This document shows, piece by piece, positions 7,907 to 53,953 of a DNA stretch of 64,000 nt. Made by a program: the position numbers and the translations under genes. The notes below the pieces were generated by a model that saw only the letters and a program-made list of their open reading frames with translations, ran no database searches and was not told the origin of the DNA. The stretch's first letter is position 1. Every line of letters begins with the position of its first letter. This stretch comes from a bacterium (GTDB lineage Bacteria; 4484-113; JAFGCY01), in the NCBI GenBank assembly GCA_020849855.1, contig JADZFO010000011.1, positions 7,318 to 71,317 on the forward strand, given 5' to 3'.

Positions 7907-7932
7907 ACAGCTAGAGGTTAGCACGGAGGATG

Positions 7933-8140
7933 AAGGGGAAAAGGCGGAAGGCGGAAGGCGAAAGGCGGAAAGCGGAAGGACGGGGCCTGGATTAAGCGAA
8001 CGAAATTCAGCCAACGGGGCATTCAGGATGAGAGGAGTATTCAGCACAGATATAACAACGCAGCCGACGTTCCGGGTCTCCGGCGCAGGCTTTCTGATTC
8101 TCAAATTCAGCCTTTCGCCTTCCGCCTTTCGCCTTGCCTT
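7933..8140. repeat. Inverted pair of AAGGCG(G/A) heptamer arrays (7941-7980 and 8108-8140)
   Basis: Left: AAGGCGG AAGGCGG AAGGCGA AAGGCGG AAAGCGG. Right, reverse-complemented: AAGGC AAGGCGA AAGGCGG AAGGCGA AAGGCTG. Confidence 0.88.
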
Positions 8141-21609: not shown

Positions 21610-24600
21610 GTGGCGCGGCTTGGGCTGATAACTGGTCCGGCGGGTTCCGGCAAGACAGAGCTGGTGCTCAATGAGGCGGCCCAGGCATCCCTGGACCAGC
21701 CTCTGGGCCCGCCGCTGCTGATCATTGTCCCGGAGCAGCAGGGCGTGCAGACCGAGCGAGCCGCCCTGCAGCGCATCGCGCGCCTGCGCGGCAGCGCTGA
21801 CGGGACTGCTGCCAGCTCGAGGATCCGCGTGCTCAGCCTCAGCCGGCTGGCGCGATTGCTGGAGGAGCGCAGTGGCCGGCACAGCCAGCCCCTGAGCGAG
21901 CTGCAGCGCCGCCTGCTGGTCTGGCGCCTGCTGGAGCCTGGCCGAGAGCGCGAGGCCCGTGCGCAGGTCTATTCGGACCTGCTGGCAGAGCTGGCCCTGT
22001 GGCAGACCCGCCCGGAAGAGCTGGAACAGTGCAGCGCGCAGCTTTCGCTGCAGGCCGCTGCGGCCGCCGAGCTGCCCCTGCGCCAGAAGCTGGAGCAGCT
22101 TTCCGCCAAGCTGAGCACCCTGGCTGCGCTGCAGCGGCGCTATATCGCTGCCTGCGAGGCCCAGGGCCTGGATTTCCGGCCGGCCCCGGCGCGGATACCC
22201 GAACTGCTGAGTGAGGAGAACTGGCCCGGGCTGAGCCGCACGCGGGTCTGGGTCGACGGTTTTGCCGGCTTCACGCCGGCTGAGGAAAGCGCTCTGCAGG
22301 CCCTGCTGAAACACTGCGAGAGCGTCAGCGCCACAGTGCTGCTGGACCCGCGGCGGCGCTACGGGCCGCTGGAGTCGGATACCCGCGACTGGTACGCGCC
22401 CGGGCGAGCCCTGCTGGAGCGCTGGCAGCTGCTGGCCCAGCGCAGCGCGGCGGCGCAGACACAGCTGCTTGAGCTGCCCCAGCCGCAGGCCTGGCCCCCG
22501 GGGCACCCCCTGGGGCAGCTGGCGCTGGAGCTGCCGCAGGCTGGCATGCGCATCGCCGCGGCGGAGCAGGATGAGATCCTGGCCGTGGCCTGCGCGGACG
22601 AACGCCAGGAGGTTGAAGCGGCGGCCCAGCATATCCGCGAGCTGCTGCTGCCGCCGGAGTCCGGCGGACGGGGCATCCCGGCGGGGCGGATATCAGTGGT
22701 GCTGCGCAGTGTGGAGCACTATGCCCCGCTGATCCGCAACATCTTTCACGACTATGAGATTCCCTTCTTTCTGGACCAGCGCCGCAGCCTGGCACACCAT
22801 CCCGCGGTGGAGCTGCTGCGCAGCGGCCTGCGTCTGGCACTGGGCCTGGCCGGCCAGGAGGACATAGCGGCGCTGCTGCGCTGCGGCCTGCTGCCGGCGC
22901 CGGAGGATGAAAGCCTGCGCGCGGCGGCCGACGCCTTGCTGGCCTATGCGCGGCGACACGGCCTGCGACCGGGGCTGTGGCTCAGCGACAGCGACTGGCG
23001 CTTCAGCGGCGGCCTGCTGGGCTCCGAGGAGAGCCTTGACGATGAGCGCCTGAGACAGCGCGAGGAAAGCCTGGCGCGGCTGAACGCCTGGCGCCGGAAG
23101 ATCCTGGCGCCGATAGCCGCGCTCTCACGGCGGCTGAGGGGGCTGGAGCGGCCGCGGCTTCGGGAGCTGCTGGCCTGCGCCTGGGAAGAGCTCTTCAGCG
23201 CGGCGACGGCGCAGCAGATGGAAAGCTGGGCCCTGCAGGCGCAGCAGCGCTCGGCTGGCAGCGGCCGTGAAGCCTCCTACATGGGGGACAAGGCGCAGCT
23301 GCACCGGGCGGTATGGCCTGCGCTGGCCGCGCTGCTTGACGCGCTGGATGCCGTCGCCGGCGAAGAGCGCATGGAACCGGCGGAGGTTTGCGCCTGGCTG
23401 GAGGCCGGCCTGGCGGCGCTGGATACCGGCTTCCCCCCGCCTCTGCTGGACACAGTGCTGGTGACGCAGATTGACCGCGGCCGCCACGGGAGCGTGGATG
23501 CGACCCTGCTGCTGGGACTGAGCGAGGACCTGTGGCCGCCGGCCCAGGCGGAGTCCGCGCTGTTCTCCGACCTTGAGCGCGAGCTGATCAACGCGGGCCC
23601 GGAGGGCGGCGGCGACAGCGATATGCAGCTGCTGGCGGCCGGTGCGCGCCAGCAGGCCCAGCGCGAACCCTGGTTCTTCCTGGTAGCCATCACCCGCCCG
23701 GCCCGGCACCTGTATCTCAGCCGGCCGGCATCCTCAGCGGATGGCCAGCTGCGCCCGGCATCGGCATATCTGCGCGCGCTGCTGGACAGCATCGGCCTGC
23801 AGGAGCGCGGGGCAGAGCAGCTTTGCGCCGAGCGCCTGGAACGCGGCAGCCTGTATCTGCCGCCGGCGGAACTGGCCGCGCGCCTGGCCGGCGCGGAGCC
23901 CGGGCTGTTATCCGCGCTGCCGCAGCTTGAGCGGCTGCTGCTGGCGCAGGCGCCGGACGCGCTGAGCGCGGTGCGCTGGTCGCAGGCCGAGTATCAGCGC
24001 CGCGGCCAGCCCCTGCCGCTGGACGCGCCGACACTGGAGCTGCTCTTCCAGCGCACAGGCCAGACCCGCCTGCGGGCCAGTGCCTCCCAGCTTGAGGCCT
24101 TCGCGCTCTGCCCCTTCCGGCACTACAGCCGCTACCTGCTGCGCCTCAGTGAGGAACAGCCGCCGCTATTTGACGCCCGCACCATGGGCTCCTTCTACCA
24201 CAGCCTCTTTGAGGGCCTCGTGCGGCGTCTGCAGGTGAGCGCGGCACAGGAAAGCTGGGCGGCCATCGACAGCGAGCGGATTGAAGCCGAGGCCGCCGAA
24301 GTGCTGAGCGAGCTTGGCGCGGTGCTGAAACTTGAAACGGACTATCAGCGGATTGACTTCCTGCTGCTGCGCGCGCGCGCCATCCTGGCCCAGCATGCGC
24401 AGCTCCTGGCCGCGATGCTGGCCGAGGGCCGTGTGCCCCTGGCGGCGGAGCTGGCCTTTGGCGAGCAGCCCGGCAGTCAGCTGCCGCCCCTGCGCCTGGA
24501 CTTCCCCGGCGGCGAGCTGCTGCTCTCGGGCAAGATTGACCGCCTGGACCGCGACAGTCAGGGCCAGGCCAGTGTGGTGGACTACAAACTGGGGCAGCGC

Positions 24601-29144: not shown

Positions 29145-29258
29145 GCCGGTGCTGGCTAAGCCCGCATCATCCCTCCGCAAAGACAGAGGAAAGGGCGGGA
29201 TTGCCTCCGACCTGATGGTTCAAGTTAGCTGCGGGCGGTGCCTCAGTAAGTTTGCAGT

Positions 29259-30023
29259 TCAATCAGGATGCCGAACTGCATCTCCACCGTAGTAGGTGAA
29301 AACATCCCTGAAAAGCACCTCGTTAGCCTGCTCGCCATAGGCGGTGACTTGGATCGCACCGCTGAGGGGCATTCCCTCGCTTGGGGTACTCAACAGCAGT
29401 TCTCCGGACTCCAGGTTTCGAATCTCATCCTCTGTCAAGGCTCGGAAATCCAGCGCCAGTGGAGCCCAGGCTGAGCTTTCAAATGACGTGTAGTACTTGC
29501 CTGTCAGCGGGTCAATGCTGTAAAGGGCCTGACACAGTTGAGTTCGCGCGTCACTATTCTTGAATTGCTCCCAAGAACTGCCATCAGTAAACCTTGCACT
29601 AAGTAGATCGGCCCCATCTTTGGGCATTACGCCATGTGCGAAGTAGTACTGGCCAACATAGTGGGCAGTAGTTGGGAGCGAAGCAGTAGTCTGTCCGCAT
29701 AGAACGGCACCCAGTCGCTTCAGGTCCTTTGGGCTCAGCTCCGACGAAACTACCTGCTTGCCTTCGCATCTGCGGTACTCGTCCAGCAGCGAACGCGCGG
29801 AGTCAGGCATGGAGGCCTGAGACGAAGCCAGTGTGTGGATAGTGACTTGTTCCGCGAAATTGGCTTCCAAGTCTGAGCTGACCAAGGCCTGCCTTATCTT
29901 CGCTGCGGAATAAACGTACTGGCGGTCGTTGACCTGCTGAGCAGACTCGGAATTGACGCAGCCAGTCAGTGCTTGCAGCAACCCGAACAGTAGTGAGCAG
30001 GCAAGAAGAGAATCGCGAATCAT
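29259..30023 (-). CDS. Hypothetical lipoprotein (island paralog B)
   Basis: Lipobox LTGC; lower GC; shares blocks with 30606-31409. Confidence 0.7.
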   Translation of the reverse strand: MIRDSLLACSLLFGLLQALTGCVNSESAQQVNDRQYVYSAAKIRQALVSSDLEANFAEQVTIHTLASSQASMPDSARSLLDEYRRCEGKQVVSSELSPKDLKRLGAVLCGQTTASLPTTAHYVGQYYFAHGVMPKDGADLLSARFTDGSSWEQFKNSDARTQLCQALYSIDPLTGKYYTSFESSAWAPLALDFRALTEDEIRNLESGELLLSTPSEGMPLSGAIQVTAYGEQANEVLFRDVFTYYGGDAVRHPD

Positions 30024-30060
30024 AGAAACCTCCCTGGGAAGTTGGATGCTGGCTGCCGCG

Positions 30061-30549
30061 TTAGCAGTCTTCGCACAAATAGAATACGTAGGCCTCTCCC
30101 CACTGACTCATACTGCAAGGCATATCTGCGCCAGCTGTGCATCGGCAGACGTCGCGAGTGAAACTGCGCCGCCTGATGTTTGATTTGATCAGGTTTCCGA
30201 CCCCATCCCTTGCGTTCATCTCATCGCTGTGTGACTCTGTCTCGATTGTGATGTAACCCTCCTCCGTGTCGGTATGACAGAAGAGCGAGAAGCTACCGCA
30301 GCAGTCAAAATTTACTGTGTTTGTGACAGAGAAATGCTCGGTCGCTACGTTGTTGTAGCAGCACCAGTGCGGAATGTTCAGAGATTGATGCAGTAGCTCT
30401 GCGTCCTCTACCCAAGCATCGGTGATTGGTTCGTCGGGGACTTCAACGCAGTCAGCATCATGCCCACTGCTCGTCGCGGGTCCCAATACAAGCCCTGAAC
30501 AGATGAGCAGAAGTACTAACTTAGAGCTCCTTAGCATAGCTGTCTCCAT
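30061..30549 (-). CDS. Cysteine-rich secreted hypothetical protein
   Basis: Signal KLVLLLICSGLVLG; 11 Cys after the signal in about 140 aa. Start 30549 (or 30537) lies downstream of a canonical promoter. Confidence 0.65.
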   Translation of the reverse strand: METAMLRSSKLVLLLICSGLVLGPATSSGHDADCVEVPDEPITDAWVEDAELLHQSLNIPHWCCYNNVATEHFSVTNTVNFDCCGSFSLFCHTDTEEGYITIETESHSDEMNARDGVGNLIKSNIRRRSFTRDVCRCTAGADMPCSMSQWGEAYVFYLCEDC

Positions 30550-30575
30550 TATGAATCTCTTGTGGAGATATAGGC

Positions 30576-30604
30576 AGTATATATATATATATGTATATTG
30601 GCAA
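30576..30604 (-). promoter_or_regulatory. Sigma70-type promoter TTGCCA-N17-TATACT with a (TA)7 microsatellite in the spacer
   Basis: -35 at 30604-30599, -10 at 30581-30576, TA run at 30578-30592. Confidence 0.72.
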
Positions 30605-30605
30605 C

Positions 30606-31409
30606 CTAAAATGAGGTGAAATCTCTGCCCGGACACCAATTGCCGTTTTCGCTAAGCGTCATCCAAAAATGGCCAGAGAAGAGTACGGTCCTGACCTTGG
30701 CGCCATATACAGTGACATGAAAGCCCTGCTGAATCTTCTCGCTTCTCTTTGCTCCAACCTGAACAGGAGGTATAGAGCCACCCCTCGTCTTCCTGATGGA
30801 GCCAAACCCCCTGAGTGGCACAATTCTGATTCCATAAGGTTCACCGCCAGATTCGAAGGATGTAATCAGCTTGCCGGTCGCAGCGTTGATTCCACTTTTT
30901 ACCAACGTCAGTTTGTCTTTGTCGATAGCCGTGTCGAAAGCTGCGTCACTGATAGTTAAGTGGCCCTCAGCTGTCGCCAAAATTCCTGAGCTAGCGACCA
31001 CCAGCTCTTGTCCGTCCTGTGGCAGCCTGCCATGCTCTGCGTAGAAGGACATAGCCTTGTATATTGGGAGTGTCCCATGGAACGTCTGTCCATTCTGCCA
31101 TGACAAGGACCTGACCAGTCTCAACTCCTGGGTACTCAGCGAGCTAACCTCTACACTGTTCAGCGCCAGGTTCCCCGGATAAATATGAGATTGTTGCTCA
31201 GGTATTGCAGTGCTGAAGTAGTCGGCGAGATCAAGGGCGGCAAGGCGGGTCCTAGTAGCTTGTGGTATGTCTGTGAATTGCGCGACTTCGGGCTGCCATC
31301 CCCAGAGTGCCATGCTTTGAAAGTCGCATACCCACCATGCGAGGACAAGAACCGTGCCTGCGGCGCCAAATGCCACAAGTGCTCTTATGGCCTTGGTCCC
31401 CTTTGGCAT
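30606..31409 (-). CDS. Hypothetical membrane-anchored protein (island paralog A)
   Basis: N-terminal TM (ALVAFGAAGTVLVLAWWV); starts 9 bp after the pilT stop; lower GC. Confidence 0.7.
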   Translation of the reverse strand: MPKGTKAIRALVAFGAAGTVLVLAWWVCDFQSMALWGWQPEVAQFTDIPQATRTRLAALDLADYFSTAIPEQQSHIYPGNLALNSVEVSSLSTQELRLVRSLSWQNGQTFHGTLPIYKAMSFYAEHGRLPQDGQELVVASSGILATAEGHLTISDAAFDTAIDKDKLTLVKSGINAATGKLITSFESGGEPYGIRIVPLRGFGSIRKTRGGSIPPVQVGAKRSEKIQQGFHVTVYGAKVRTVLFSGHFWMTLSENGNWCPGRDFTSF

Positions 31410-31418
31410 GCAGCAGTC

Positions 31419-32573
31419 CTAAATCCCGCCGACCGGCCCGGTCTGGGCGCGGGTGCGTGCGAACTGGTCGACGCGGTTGAGCACTTTGTCGGAGAAGTCG
31501 GTTTCCTTCTGCTCCAGCAGCTTGAAGTCGTGCGGGCTGGTGGCGGCGTTGAGGGCGGTTTCGTAGGTGATCTTGCCCTTCTGGTAAAGCTTGAGCAGGT
31601 AGCGGTCGAAGGTGATCATGCCTTCGCTCTCGCCTTCCTCCATCGCCATCTTGATCATCTCGGTCTTCTCGGGGTCCTCGATGAACTCCTTGATACGGCC
31701 GGTGGACTTCATGATCTCCATCGCCGGGATACGGCCGCCGCCGACCATCGGCAGCAGGCGCATCGAGACGATGGCCTTGATCGTTTCAGAAAGCATGATG
31801 CGGGCCTGCTGCTGCAGGCTTTCGGGGTAGAAGTCGACGATACGGTTGATCGTACGCACGACGTCCAGGGTGTGCAGGGTGGAAAGCACCAGGTGGCCGG
31901 TGAGGGCGGCCTGGAAGGTGGCGTTGACCGTCTCGCGGTCGCGCATCTCACCCACCAGCATGATATCCGGGTCCTCTCGCATCGCGCCGCGGACGGCGTT
32001 GGCGAAGGAGTTGGTGTCCACGCCAAGCTCGCGCTGGTTGATGATCGCTTCCTTGTCGTAGAGGACGTACTCGATGGGGTCCTCGATGGTCAGGATGTGC
32101 ACCGGGCGGCGGTTATTCACATAGTCGATCATCGAGGCCAGGGTGGTCGACTTACCGGAACCGGTGGTTCCGGTGATGATGATGATGCCGCGGTGCTCGA
32201 GGGCCAGCTCCTCCATGATGATCGGGAGGTTCAGCTCCTCGAAGCTGGGGATGCGGTCGTTGACCAGACGGATCGCGCTGGCCAGGCTGCCCTTCTGGCG
32301 GAAGATGTTGACGCGGAAGCGGCCGCGCTTGCCATCCTTCGTCAGAACATAGGAGAAGTCGATCTCGTTCTCTTCCTCAAGACGGTACTCGCGCTTGGGA
32401 GTCAGGAGCTGCTTGCACAGGCGCTCCATGTCCTCCTCGTTGAGCAGGTCGTATTCGCTGGGCATCAGGTCGCCATCGATGCGGTAGAAGGGCGGACGGT
32501 CGACACCAAGGTGGGTGTCAGAGGCGCCTTTCTTCATCATGGTGAAGAGGATGTCGTCAATGTGAATCGCCAT
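31419..32573 (-). CDS. pilT: PilT/PilU family type IV pilus retraction-type ATPase
   Basis: ASDTHL, GRFRVNIF, GTTGSGKSTT, ILTIEDPIEY, AMREDPDIMLVGEMRD, TGHLVLSTLHT. Confidence 0.92.
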   Translation of the reverse strand: MAIHIDDILFTMMKKGASDTHLGVDRPPFYRIDGDLMPSEYDLLNEEDMERLCKQLLTPKREYRLEEENEIDFSYVLTKDGKRGRFRVNIFRQKGSLASAIRLVNDRIPSFEELNLPIIMEELALEHRGIIIITGTTGSGKSTTLASMIDYVNNRRPVHILTIEDPIEYVLYDKEAIINQRELGVDTNSFANAVRGAMREDPDIMLVGEMRDRETVNATFQAALTGHLVLSTLHTLDVVRTINRIVDFYPESLQQQARIMLSETIKAIVSMRLLPMVGGGRIPAMEIMKSTGRIKEFIEDPEKTEMIKMAMEEGESEGMITFDRYLLKLYQKGKITYETALNAATSPHDFKLLEQKETDFSDKVLNRVDQFARTRAQTGPVGGI

Positions 32574-33098: not shown

Positions 33099-33163
33099 AG
33101 TTCACCTCAGCCGGAAGTGCCTAGATTATGCCGCAGCCTGACCGGGCTGTCACAGCGTGATTC

Positions 33164-53734: not shown

Positions 53735-53827
53735 AGAATCCTCCGGCAGCACTGCTGCCGCCGGAATAATATCCAGCCAGGGCCGGCTTCAATATGGCGA
53801 AGATACCCAATGATAGGCAGGCGGGCC

Positions 53828-53953
53828 AAGGCGGAAGGCGGAGGCGGAAGGCGAAAGGCGGGAAAAGGCGGAAGGCGGAAGGCAGAAGGCGCAAGGCGCA
53901 AGGCGCAAGGCGCAAGGCGCAAGGCGAAGGTGACTGGGCGGAGGCGAAAGGCA
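53828..53953. repeat. Long AAGGCG(G/C/A) heptamer tandem array (about 15 units)
   Basis: AAGGCGG units, then five consecutive AAGGCGC at 53886-53920. Confidence 0.9.

Follow-up and report, generated by a model that had tools for sequence, protein, structure and literature searches.

A length-variable TA repeat in the spacer of a probable promoter before a Cys-rich protein and lipoprotein gene pair in an uncultured UBP7 bacterium

Introduction

A tract of TA dinucleotides lying between two promoter-like hexamers in a wastewater or activated-sludge MAG of UBP7 (‘Planctomycetales’) differs in length, by whole repeat units, between strains that are otherwise nearly identical. The tract is probably a hypervariable SSR within the spacer of a promoter, and the strain represented by the 64-kb stretch of DNA analyzed here (the window) probably carries a stabilized allele with a 17-nt spacer. 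The genes that this promoter would serve, cys158 and lipo254, encode a secreted Cys-rich protein and a lipoprotein. A sequence-only reading of the window had proposed a candidate phase-variation switch, and overall that interpretation is partly supported: length polymorphism between strains, located in a probable promoter spacer, stands in its favor, while the window’s own allele is interrupted and proved to be the same in seven runs from four studies. To our knowledge, nearly all SSR contingency loci described to date come from host-adapted pathogens that were studied as cultures.

Anatomy of the candidate promoter

The plus strand from 30576 to 30604 reads AGTATATATATATATATGTATATTGGCAA. On the minus strand, a -35-like hexamer, TTGCCA (30604-30599), is followed by the 17-nt spacer ATATACATATATATATA (30582-30598), nearly all of which is TA tract, and then by a -10-like hexamer, TATACT (30581-30576). 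Each hexamer matches the consensus at five of six positions, the -10 having A as its second base and T as its last. Counted from the -35, the tract has the form A-TA-TA-CA-(TA)7-CT and so comprises ten TA units, interrupted by a single T>C change. Its final two units together with CT make up the -10. The pure (TA)7T run at 30578-30592 is the length-polymorphic part; with 30593-30598 it forms the ten-unit tract, in which the interrupting base at 30593 (G on the plus strand, C on the minus strand) splits the pure run from two further TA units. Positions 2 and 6 of a -10 hexamer are both even, so uninterrupted TA sequence cannot supply A at the one and T at the other, and the sole canonical -10 is therefore TATACT, at the tract’s 3′ edge.

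From sigma70 geometry, a transcription start would be predicted ~7 nt downstream of TATACT, in the zone 30566-30571 of the minus strand. The -10 is separated by 38 nt from the ATG of cys158 at 30537, which is itself preceded at 6 nt by a Shine-Dalgarno sequence, GGAGA (30547-30543), and lipo254 comes next. The sequence-only reading had described the hexamers, their spacing and the overlap of the tract with the -10 exactly as they are, and it had correctly aimed the site at the Cys-rich gene and the lipoprotein gene behind it.

In a promoter scan, TTGCCA-17-TATACT scored 10 of 12 matches. Just two sites of this quality occur in the 64 kb when both strands are considered (128 kb of strand), this one and one at 33153, and both lie in short intergenic gaps, in the correct orientation, 20–40 nt before a start codon. 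Near-consensus hexamers, a spacer in the range of 16–18 nt and a position 20–50 nt before an SD-preceded start, as in sigma70-type promoters, thus come together at the site, and the repeat is located between the -35 and the predicted -10, as in promoter-spacer SSRs. We infer that the hexamers would act as a working promoter, with the proviso that they were scored against the sigma70 consensus and that the preferences of the UBP7 RNA polymerase may differ. The second site, GTGACA-17-CATAAT (33125-33153, minus strand), lies within the 65 nt that separate p183 from p132 and is likely to drive the p132-pilT operon; its -10 (GCGGCATAATCT box) is kept in the closest genome, L001.

The (TA)7T run is the sole TA microsatellite in the window; TRF and a regular-expression search both returned no other TA run of at least four units, in agreement with the uniqueness noted earlier. 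Under a first-order Markov model, the number of (TA)7 runs expected by chance is ~1e-7 in the window and 3e-7 in the low-GC island that houses the tract, a rarity which implies that the run is a product of slippage rather than of chance.

Since TA repeats are palindromic, promoter-like hexamers also appear on the plus strand, where TAGGCA-17-TATATT (30571-30599) matches at 9 of 12 positions, a feature that the sequence-only reading had passed over. Were this mirror site the relevant promoter, it would yield an antisense RNA to the 3′ end of p267, the gene upstream of the tract, or act as one half of a divergent pair in the manner of hifA/hifB. Its 17-nt spacer is in keeping with such a role, as is the use of overlapping divergent promoters by hif (PMC3899988), but its -35 matches at just four of six positions, there is no divergent gene for it to serve, and the plus strand runs antisense through p267, a gene with a full-length orthologue. 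We consider a primary role for the mirror site very improbable.

Other repeats in the window are of different kinds. A (GC)6 run at 24369-24380, the only other dinucleotide repeat of at least six units, lies ~440 nt upstream of the listed start (24819) of an AddA-like ORF. Arrays of the heptamers AAGGCGG, AAGGCGA and AAGGCGC occupy apparently intergenic DNA at 7932-7979, 8106-8135 and 53819-53952. Two of them, short and inverted, bracket a 126-bp segment of lower GC content, and the third comprises about 15–19 units, including six consecutive copies of AAGGCGC. These arrays may bind a protein, or they may belong to a further class of variable SSR.

Length alleles in public metagenomes

Length variation among strains had been set beforehand as a test of the phase-variation interpretation, and it was found, in the form of whole-unit differences of 2, 4 and 8 nt between near-identical strains. 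Logan contigs were aligned on the region, and allele lengths were inferred from the alignment gap reports. Allele A, which has the length of the window (ten units, interrupted; TTGCCA; spacer of 17 nt) and shows no other change, was found in X1 (study P1), X2 (P2), X3 and X11 (P3), and X5, X6 and X30 (P5), so that all seven runs cross the tract with neither mismatch nor gap; the strains that carry it are a few SNPs apart elsewhere in the island. Three shorter alleles consist of uninterrupted repeats and have TTGACA as their -35. Allele B (X9, P6) is 2 nt shorter, a pure (TA)9 with a 15-nt spacer, and carries 30543 T>C, 30547 C>T and 30601 G>T. Allele C (X13, P8) is 4 nt shorter, (TA)8 with a 13-nt spacer, and carries 30543 T>C and 30601 G>T, and allele D (X32, P15) is 8 nt shorter, (TA)6 with a 9-nt spacer, and carries 30601 G>T. 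Repeat numbers of 10 (interrupted), 9, 8 and 6 are therefore found within flanks that are at least 99% identical.

The purity of the shorter alleles follows from how the contigs align. The X9 contig aligned ungapped from 30590 and showed a second mismatch besides the one at 30601, which means that the interrupting G at 30593 is absent from it. The gaps of alleles C and D were placed at 30590 and 30586 and, by the same convention and the depth bins, both end at the G, so that by inference from gap placement this base is missing there too. A short piece from X15 (P6), which has two mismatches in common with X9 and stops short of the tract, fits allele B or another pure allele.

The contigs have depths of 2–6x, at which minor alleles are dropped, and allele D comes from one 151-nt contig of depth 2 that does not reach 30543. 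Low depth and a single contig of read length would be the grounds for attributing the repeat or its length variants to errors of assembly or sequencing. Against this, the tract measures at most 22 nt and should not collapse in an assembler whose word length we take to be k=31, the same allele recurs in seven runs, and the variant lengths are linked to SNPs at 30601 (all three alleles) and at 30543 (alleles B and C), with no competing contig. An artefact is the least credible of the alternatives considered here.

All differences of the variant haplotypes fall within the 68-nt gap between p267 and cys158, and the 210–275 nt of coding sequence that these contigs also cover on the flanks show none. 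Read on the minus strand, 30601 G>T converts TTGCCA into TTGACA, a six-of-six match to the -35 consensus, 30543 T>C converts the SD from GGAGA to GGAGG, and 30547 C>T deletes an in-frame upstream ATG; the linked SNPs thus lie on expression signals, the -35 and the SD. The three pure-tract haplotypes all differ from each other in length and are otherwise at most one SNP apart, whereas the interrupted haplotype is constant, which indicates that slippage depends on repeat purity, as expected.

Judged from these sequences, the tract is a slippage hotspot, a classic slippage-prone microsatellite that has been stabilized by an interruption. A rough estimate would place its rate of change hundreds-fold above that of a single nucleotide site. 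The window strain’s own allele, being interrupted and identical across the seven runs and four studies, looks stabilized rather than actively switching. The sequence-only reading had expected a gain or loss of one unit, giving spacers of 15 or 19 nt; the natural spacers of 17, 15, 13 and 9 nt do not toggle around 17 and depart from that prediction. The raw-read runs X21 and X34 contained no reads of the organism, and scans of JGI metagenomes with gapped patterns across the tract gave no matches.

The island downstream of pilT

The tract lies in a small group of genes on the minus strand behind pilT (31419-32573), which encodes a protein with a T2SSE domain. The first gene, p267 (30606-31409), begins 9 nt beyond the stop codon of pilT, and its stop codon falls 1 nt short of the -35; its product is a paralogue of lipo254 that is anchored in the membrane. 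The 68-nt gap that houses the tract is followed by cys158 (30061-30537; true start ATG 30537), which encodes a 158-aa secreted Cys-rich protein with 12 Cys, and, 37 nt after it, by the start of lipo254 (29259-30023), which encodes a lipoprotein of an uncharacterized ~250-aa family. Export of both products is apparent from an N-terminal signal peptide in cys158 and the lipobox LTGC in lipo254, each read by eye from the sequence. An AddA-like helicase-nuclease gene on the plus strand is convergent with the group.

Together, these three genes constitute a low-GC insert of 2.2 kb (29222-31414), with GC3 values of 0.57–0.60 versus 0.79–0.89 in the flanking genes. The insert is missing from L001, whose pilT protein is 98% identical and in which a terminator hairpin and then addA directly follow pilT. 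A degenerate remnant of this pilT/addA intergenic hairpin, intact in L001, is found at 29188-29213 (minus strand), downstream of lipo254, and its position implies that the island was placed inside the pilT transcription unit, upstream of the terminator. A site scan found no terminator-like site between pilT, p267, cys158 and lipo254. The location upstream of the pilT terminator and the 9-nt distance of p267 from pilT should give basal expression by read-through whatever the spacer length, and an ‘off’ state is likely to be leaky for this reason. The earlier proposal that the two genes would switch independently of pilT is therefore doubtful.

Searches for the origin and relatives of the island were unproductive. 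No direct or inverted repeats flank it as mobile-element borders, it had no match in a plasmid collection, and Pfam, PADLOC and Rfam returned nothing on it. The exact proteins cys158 (with two start choices), p267 and lipo254 were not on record in look-ups, and word-based homologue searches with the three returned nothing or the query itself only. Among RNA-labelled runs, in which contigs are fragmentary, the metatranscriptome X25 holds a single near-identical contig across a 3.6-kb region, located inside cys158 (30105-30285), and none in pilT, p267 or lipo254; this contig hints weakly that cys158 may be the most expressed gene of the island.

The operon-like arrangement is the natural starting point for a neutral account, in which the tract is a microsatellite in an AT-rich intercistronic gap, the three island genes are transcribed solely as the tail of the p132-pilT operon, from the promoter at 33153, the -35 and -10 are by-products of TA-richness, and length has no phenotype. 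The close spacing of p267 behind pilT, the lack of a terminator-like site from pilT to lipo254 and the position of the island upstream of the terminator remnant all agree with this account, in that genes not separated from pilT by a terminator can be expressed without a dedicated promoter. Spacers of 15, 13 and 9 nt show no selection for keeping 17, and a TA run provides TATA-like hexamers free of charge, as the score of 9 of 12 on the plus strand illustrates. By-products of base composition would not be expected, however, to include a perfect TTGACA in three haplotypes, SNPs that fall in the sampled stretch only on the -35, the SD and the upstream ATG, or one of just two 10/12 sites in the whole window. 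With the evidence from related loci described below, these points make neutrality a possible account that we rate on the unlikely side.

Proposed mechanism

The reading that joins the observed anatomy of the site, the length polymorphism seen between strains and the promoter-like elements that other copies of the module carry in the corresponding position is that the TA tract is a slippage-prone repeat forming the spacer of a sigma70-type promoter of cys158 and lipo254; in our judgment, the case for and against it is evenly balanced. The number of TA units, n, would set the distance from TTGNCA to the sole canonical -10, TATACT, with a spacer of 2n-3 nt. At n=10 the spacer would have the optimal length of 17 nt, and at n=9, 8 and 6 the resulting lengths of 15, 13 and 9 nt would be expected to weaken or abolish initiation. 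The window strain would possess the 17-nt ‘on’ geometry, in which the T>C interruption cuts the pure run to seven units and apparently stabilizes it, and in related strains uninterrupted tracts would have slipped to shorter lengths that are predicted to be weak. As the island is located inside the pilT transcription unit, such a switch would raise or lower expression on top of a basal level supplied by read-through and would not silence the genes completely.

Since tract length differs between near-identical strains, the predicted geometry makes it probable that expression of cys158 and lipo254 is altered by TA number, and switching of the predicted promoter may be frequent and reversible. Several observations count against the proposal. 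The 17-nt spacing is missing from every pure allele, and a neutral, decaying microsatellite would look the same; the uniformly shorter pure alleles fit drifting ‘off’ states and equally fit a decaying neutral tract. The invariance of the window allele in all seven runs also weighs against active switching.

Transcription running on from p267 would carry the tract into the mRNA, 41 nt ahead of the cys158 start codon, which raises an alternative at the RNA level: a transcribed (UA)n, which is self-complementary, might tune processing, stability or translation of cys158, in the way of the heptamer in the 5′-UTR of hmw1A. RNase III processing of a transcribed SSR has been described before (PMC12721329). 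Here, however, the region is predicted to fold no better than shuffled sequence (z=0.61 for RNA and z=1.04 for DNA), values on which an RNA hairpin and a DNA cruciform were both rejected; Rfam gave no match, and a seven-unit hairpin of AU pairs only would be very weak. Regulation at the RNA level is thus improbable.

Other copies of the Cys-rich/lipoprotein module

The promoter reading gains support from two other copies of the module, in which sigma70-like promoters are predicted at the same position. One copy is represented by L030, a second contig of the MAG to which L001 belongs, and by L031. There, a clear intrinsic terminator closes a porin gene and is followed by cTTGACAttcaggaTTGATAaatatatacacatatatactgcc...GAGGtgaactcaGTG and, farther downstream, by a Cys-rich gene of 147 aa and then a lipoprotein of the family; the Cys-rich protein of L030 is 30% identical to cys158. 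Upstream of the Cys-rich gene, TTGACA/TTGATA precedes A(TA)3(CA)2(TA)3CT, after which comes GCC. The degenerate TA tract of L030 aligns with that of the window, and both end in TATACTGCC. Its placement after a terminator means that this stretch must hold the module’s own promoter, and a copy with its own promoter and a homologous TA tract counts against the neutral account given above. The hexamers are arranged as TTGACA-17-TATACA or TTGATA-14-TATACT, and the latter, with TATACT 14 nt from TTGATA, shows that the geometry of the window is not conserved.

The other copy, in the UBP7 genome L002, consists of two genes in inverted orientation next to the 3′ end of pilT, where TTGACT-18-TAGAAT, lacking a repeat, lies 32 nt before the Cys-rich gene. 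Across the three copies, then, a sigma70-like promoter is predicted just ahead of the Cys-rich gene in all, a TA tract is present in two, and the exact geometry varies. An island at the same site as in the window was also found on a 2960-bp JGI contig (sample 3300056388), with proteins that are only ~34–35% identical. In order, this contig carries a 3′ fragment of pilT, a p267-like gene that provides the full-length orthologue of p267 and, beyond a gap of 72 nt, an ORF of 154 aa and a lipo-like gene, on which a PDDEXK nuclease gene converges. It is possible, though we rate it below even odds, that the Cys-rich/lipoprotein pair is a self-promoted, fast-evolving UBP7 surface module with an ancestral (TA)n contingency tract in its promoter.

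The pilT 3′ flank is a variable spot in UBP7 genomes, as comparison of L001, L002, L010, the JGI contig and the window makes clear. It has no insert in L001 (7152-7262), the inverted Cys-rich/lipoprotein pair in L002 (7150-8650), and in L010 (7152-8650) a different low-GC insert (GC 0.47–0.55) with a 309-aa ORF.

Two further loci contain relatives of these genes. In L028 (1-413), a Cys-rich homologue upstream of the lipoprotein P0005 is broken by an in-frame TGA, between …CCCYHNRLD and HSDYDLL…, beyond which the conserved Cys motifs resume; the gene could be a pseudogene, or the TGA could be recoded or an error of sequencing. In L034 (650-685), the sequence cTTGCTT-CCCCCCCCC-TCGCGT-TATACT, in which a poly-C9 tract lies within the promoter-like spacer, stands before P0022, a member of the family encoded on an ENA contig. 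This arrangement is a second hint of SSR-bearing promoters before genes of the p267/lipo254 family.

The p267/lipo254 protein family

The products of p267 and lipo254 are paralogues within a small, uncharacterized family of secreted proteins of ~250 aa, which share the motifs YY..HG.LP.DG.EL, INP.TGK.Y.SF and W.VT.YGE.PG. A full HMMER scan of 1.8 billion proteins with a p267/lipo254 profile identified 67 representatives at E<=1e-3, and the family has no match in Pfam. It evolves fast, as orthologues at the same site are the ~34–35% identical proteins of the JGI contig. The AlphaFold model of lipo254 is confident (pLDDT 82.6, pTM 0.76), and a Foldseek search of the PDB with this model gave nothing better than E 0.69. 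The fold of lipo254 and p267, as modeled, may be undescribed. Identification as a chitosanase, suggested by a PDB sequence profile, was rejected as a marginal match (E 0.016).

Implications

The mechanism itself, of the hif type, is already known, and the value of the locus lies in the example that it provides and in the handle that it gives on unknown surface biology. If the proposal is true, the promoter-spacer device would occur in an uncultured environmental phylum and would have been found and partly tested through public metagenomes alone. An SSR phase-variable locus of a free-living, uncultured wastewater lineage would then be visible as population polymorphism in metagenomes, with alleles that include ‘locked-on’ (interrupted) and ‘slipped-off’ (pure, shortened) forms. 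The repeated placement of such modules at the pilT 3′ flank might further indicate a link to type IV pilus biology or to phage evasion. The natural allele series, an interrupted tract with 17 nt and pure tracts with 15, 13 and 9 nt, is usable directly in reporter assays. The locus also flags an uncharacterized secreted pair as a likely target of diversifying or fluctuating selection, and it draws attention to a lipoprotein family with a confident model that has no match among solved structures.

Comparison with known repeat switches

Repeats that act through promoter spacing or through the leader of a transcript are known from several systems. In Neisseria meningitidis porA (poly-G), Bordetella pertussis fim and Mycoplasma hyorhinis vlp (poly-A), the length of an SSR in the spacer grades or switches expression (PMC3899988); these tracts are mononucleotide repeats that change in 1-nt steps, whereas the tract described here changes in 2-nt steps. 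Dinucleotide spacer tracts were looked for in a review of phase variation (PMC11868660), which yielded none. In Haemophilus influenzae hmw1A, an intergenic heptamer SSR in the 5′-UTR tunes expression according to its length via a long RNA hairpin and RNase III (PMC12721329). Like hmw1A, the present locus has its SSR in intergenic DNA ahead of a gene for a surface protein; it differs in that no significant structure is predicted. A more distant likeness is offered by the human UGT1A1 A(TA)nTAA polymorphism, in which TA number sets the level of transcription (PMC9169181). The TA units again lie within a core promoter element, but this element is a eukaryotic TATA box, and the polymorphism is a stable germline one rather than a bacterial contingency locus.

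The closest known system is the (TA)n spacer switch of H. influenzae hifA/hifB, in which TA repeats are located between the -35 and -10 of overlapping divergent promoters (PMC3899988). Both loci have TA as the repeat unit, a tract that fills the -35/-10 spacer, a 2-nt change in spacing per unit, exported or surface products, and a palindromic tract that produces promoter-like hexamers on both strands. Repeat numbers are similar as well, 6–10 here and about 9–11 in hif, the latter being the range that van Ham et al. in 1993 reportedly found. The divergent gene pair that shares the hif promoters has no counterpart here, where mirror hexamers are present and a divergent gene is not. Unlike hif, the UBP7 locus has an interrupted allele in the window strain, its genes lie inside an upstream operon, its ‘off’ state is likely leaky, and its switching is a prediction. 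The hosts also differ, the hif switch belonging to a host-adapted pathogen and the present tract to an uncultured environmental UBP7 bacterium.
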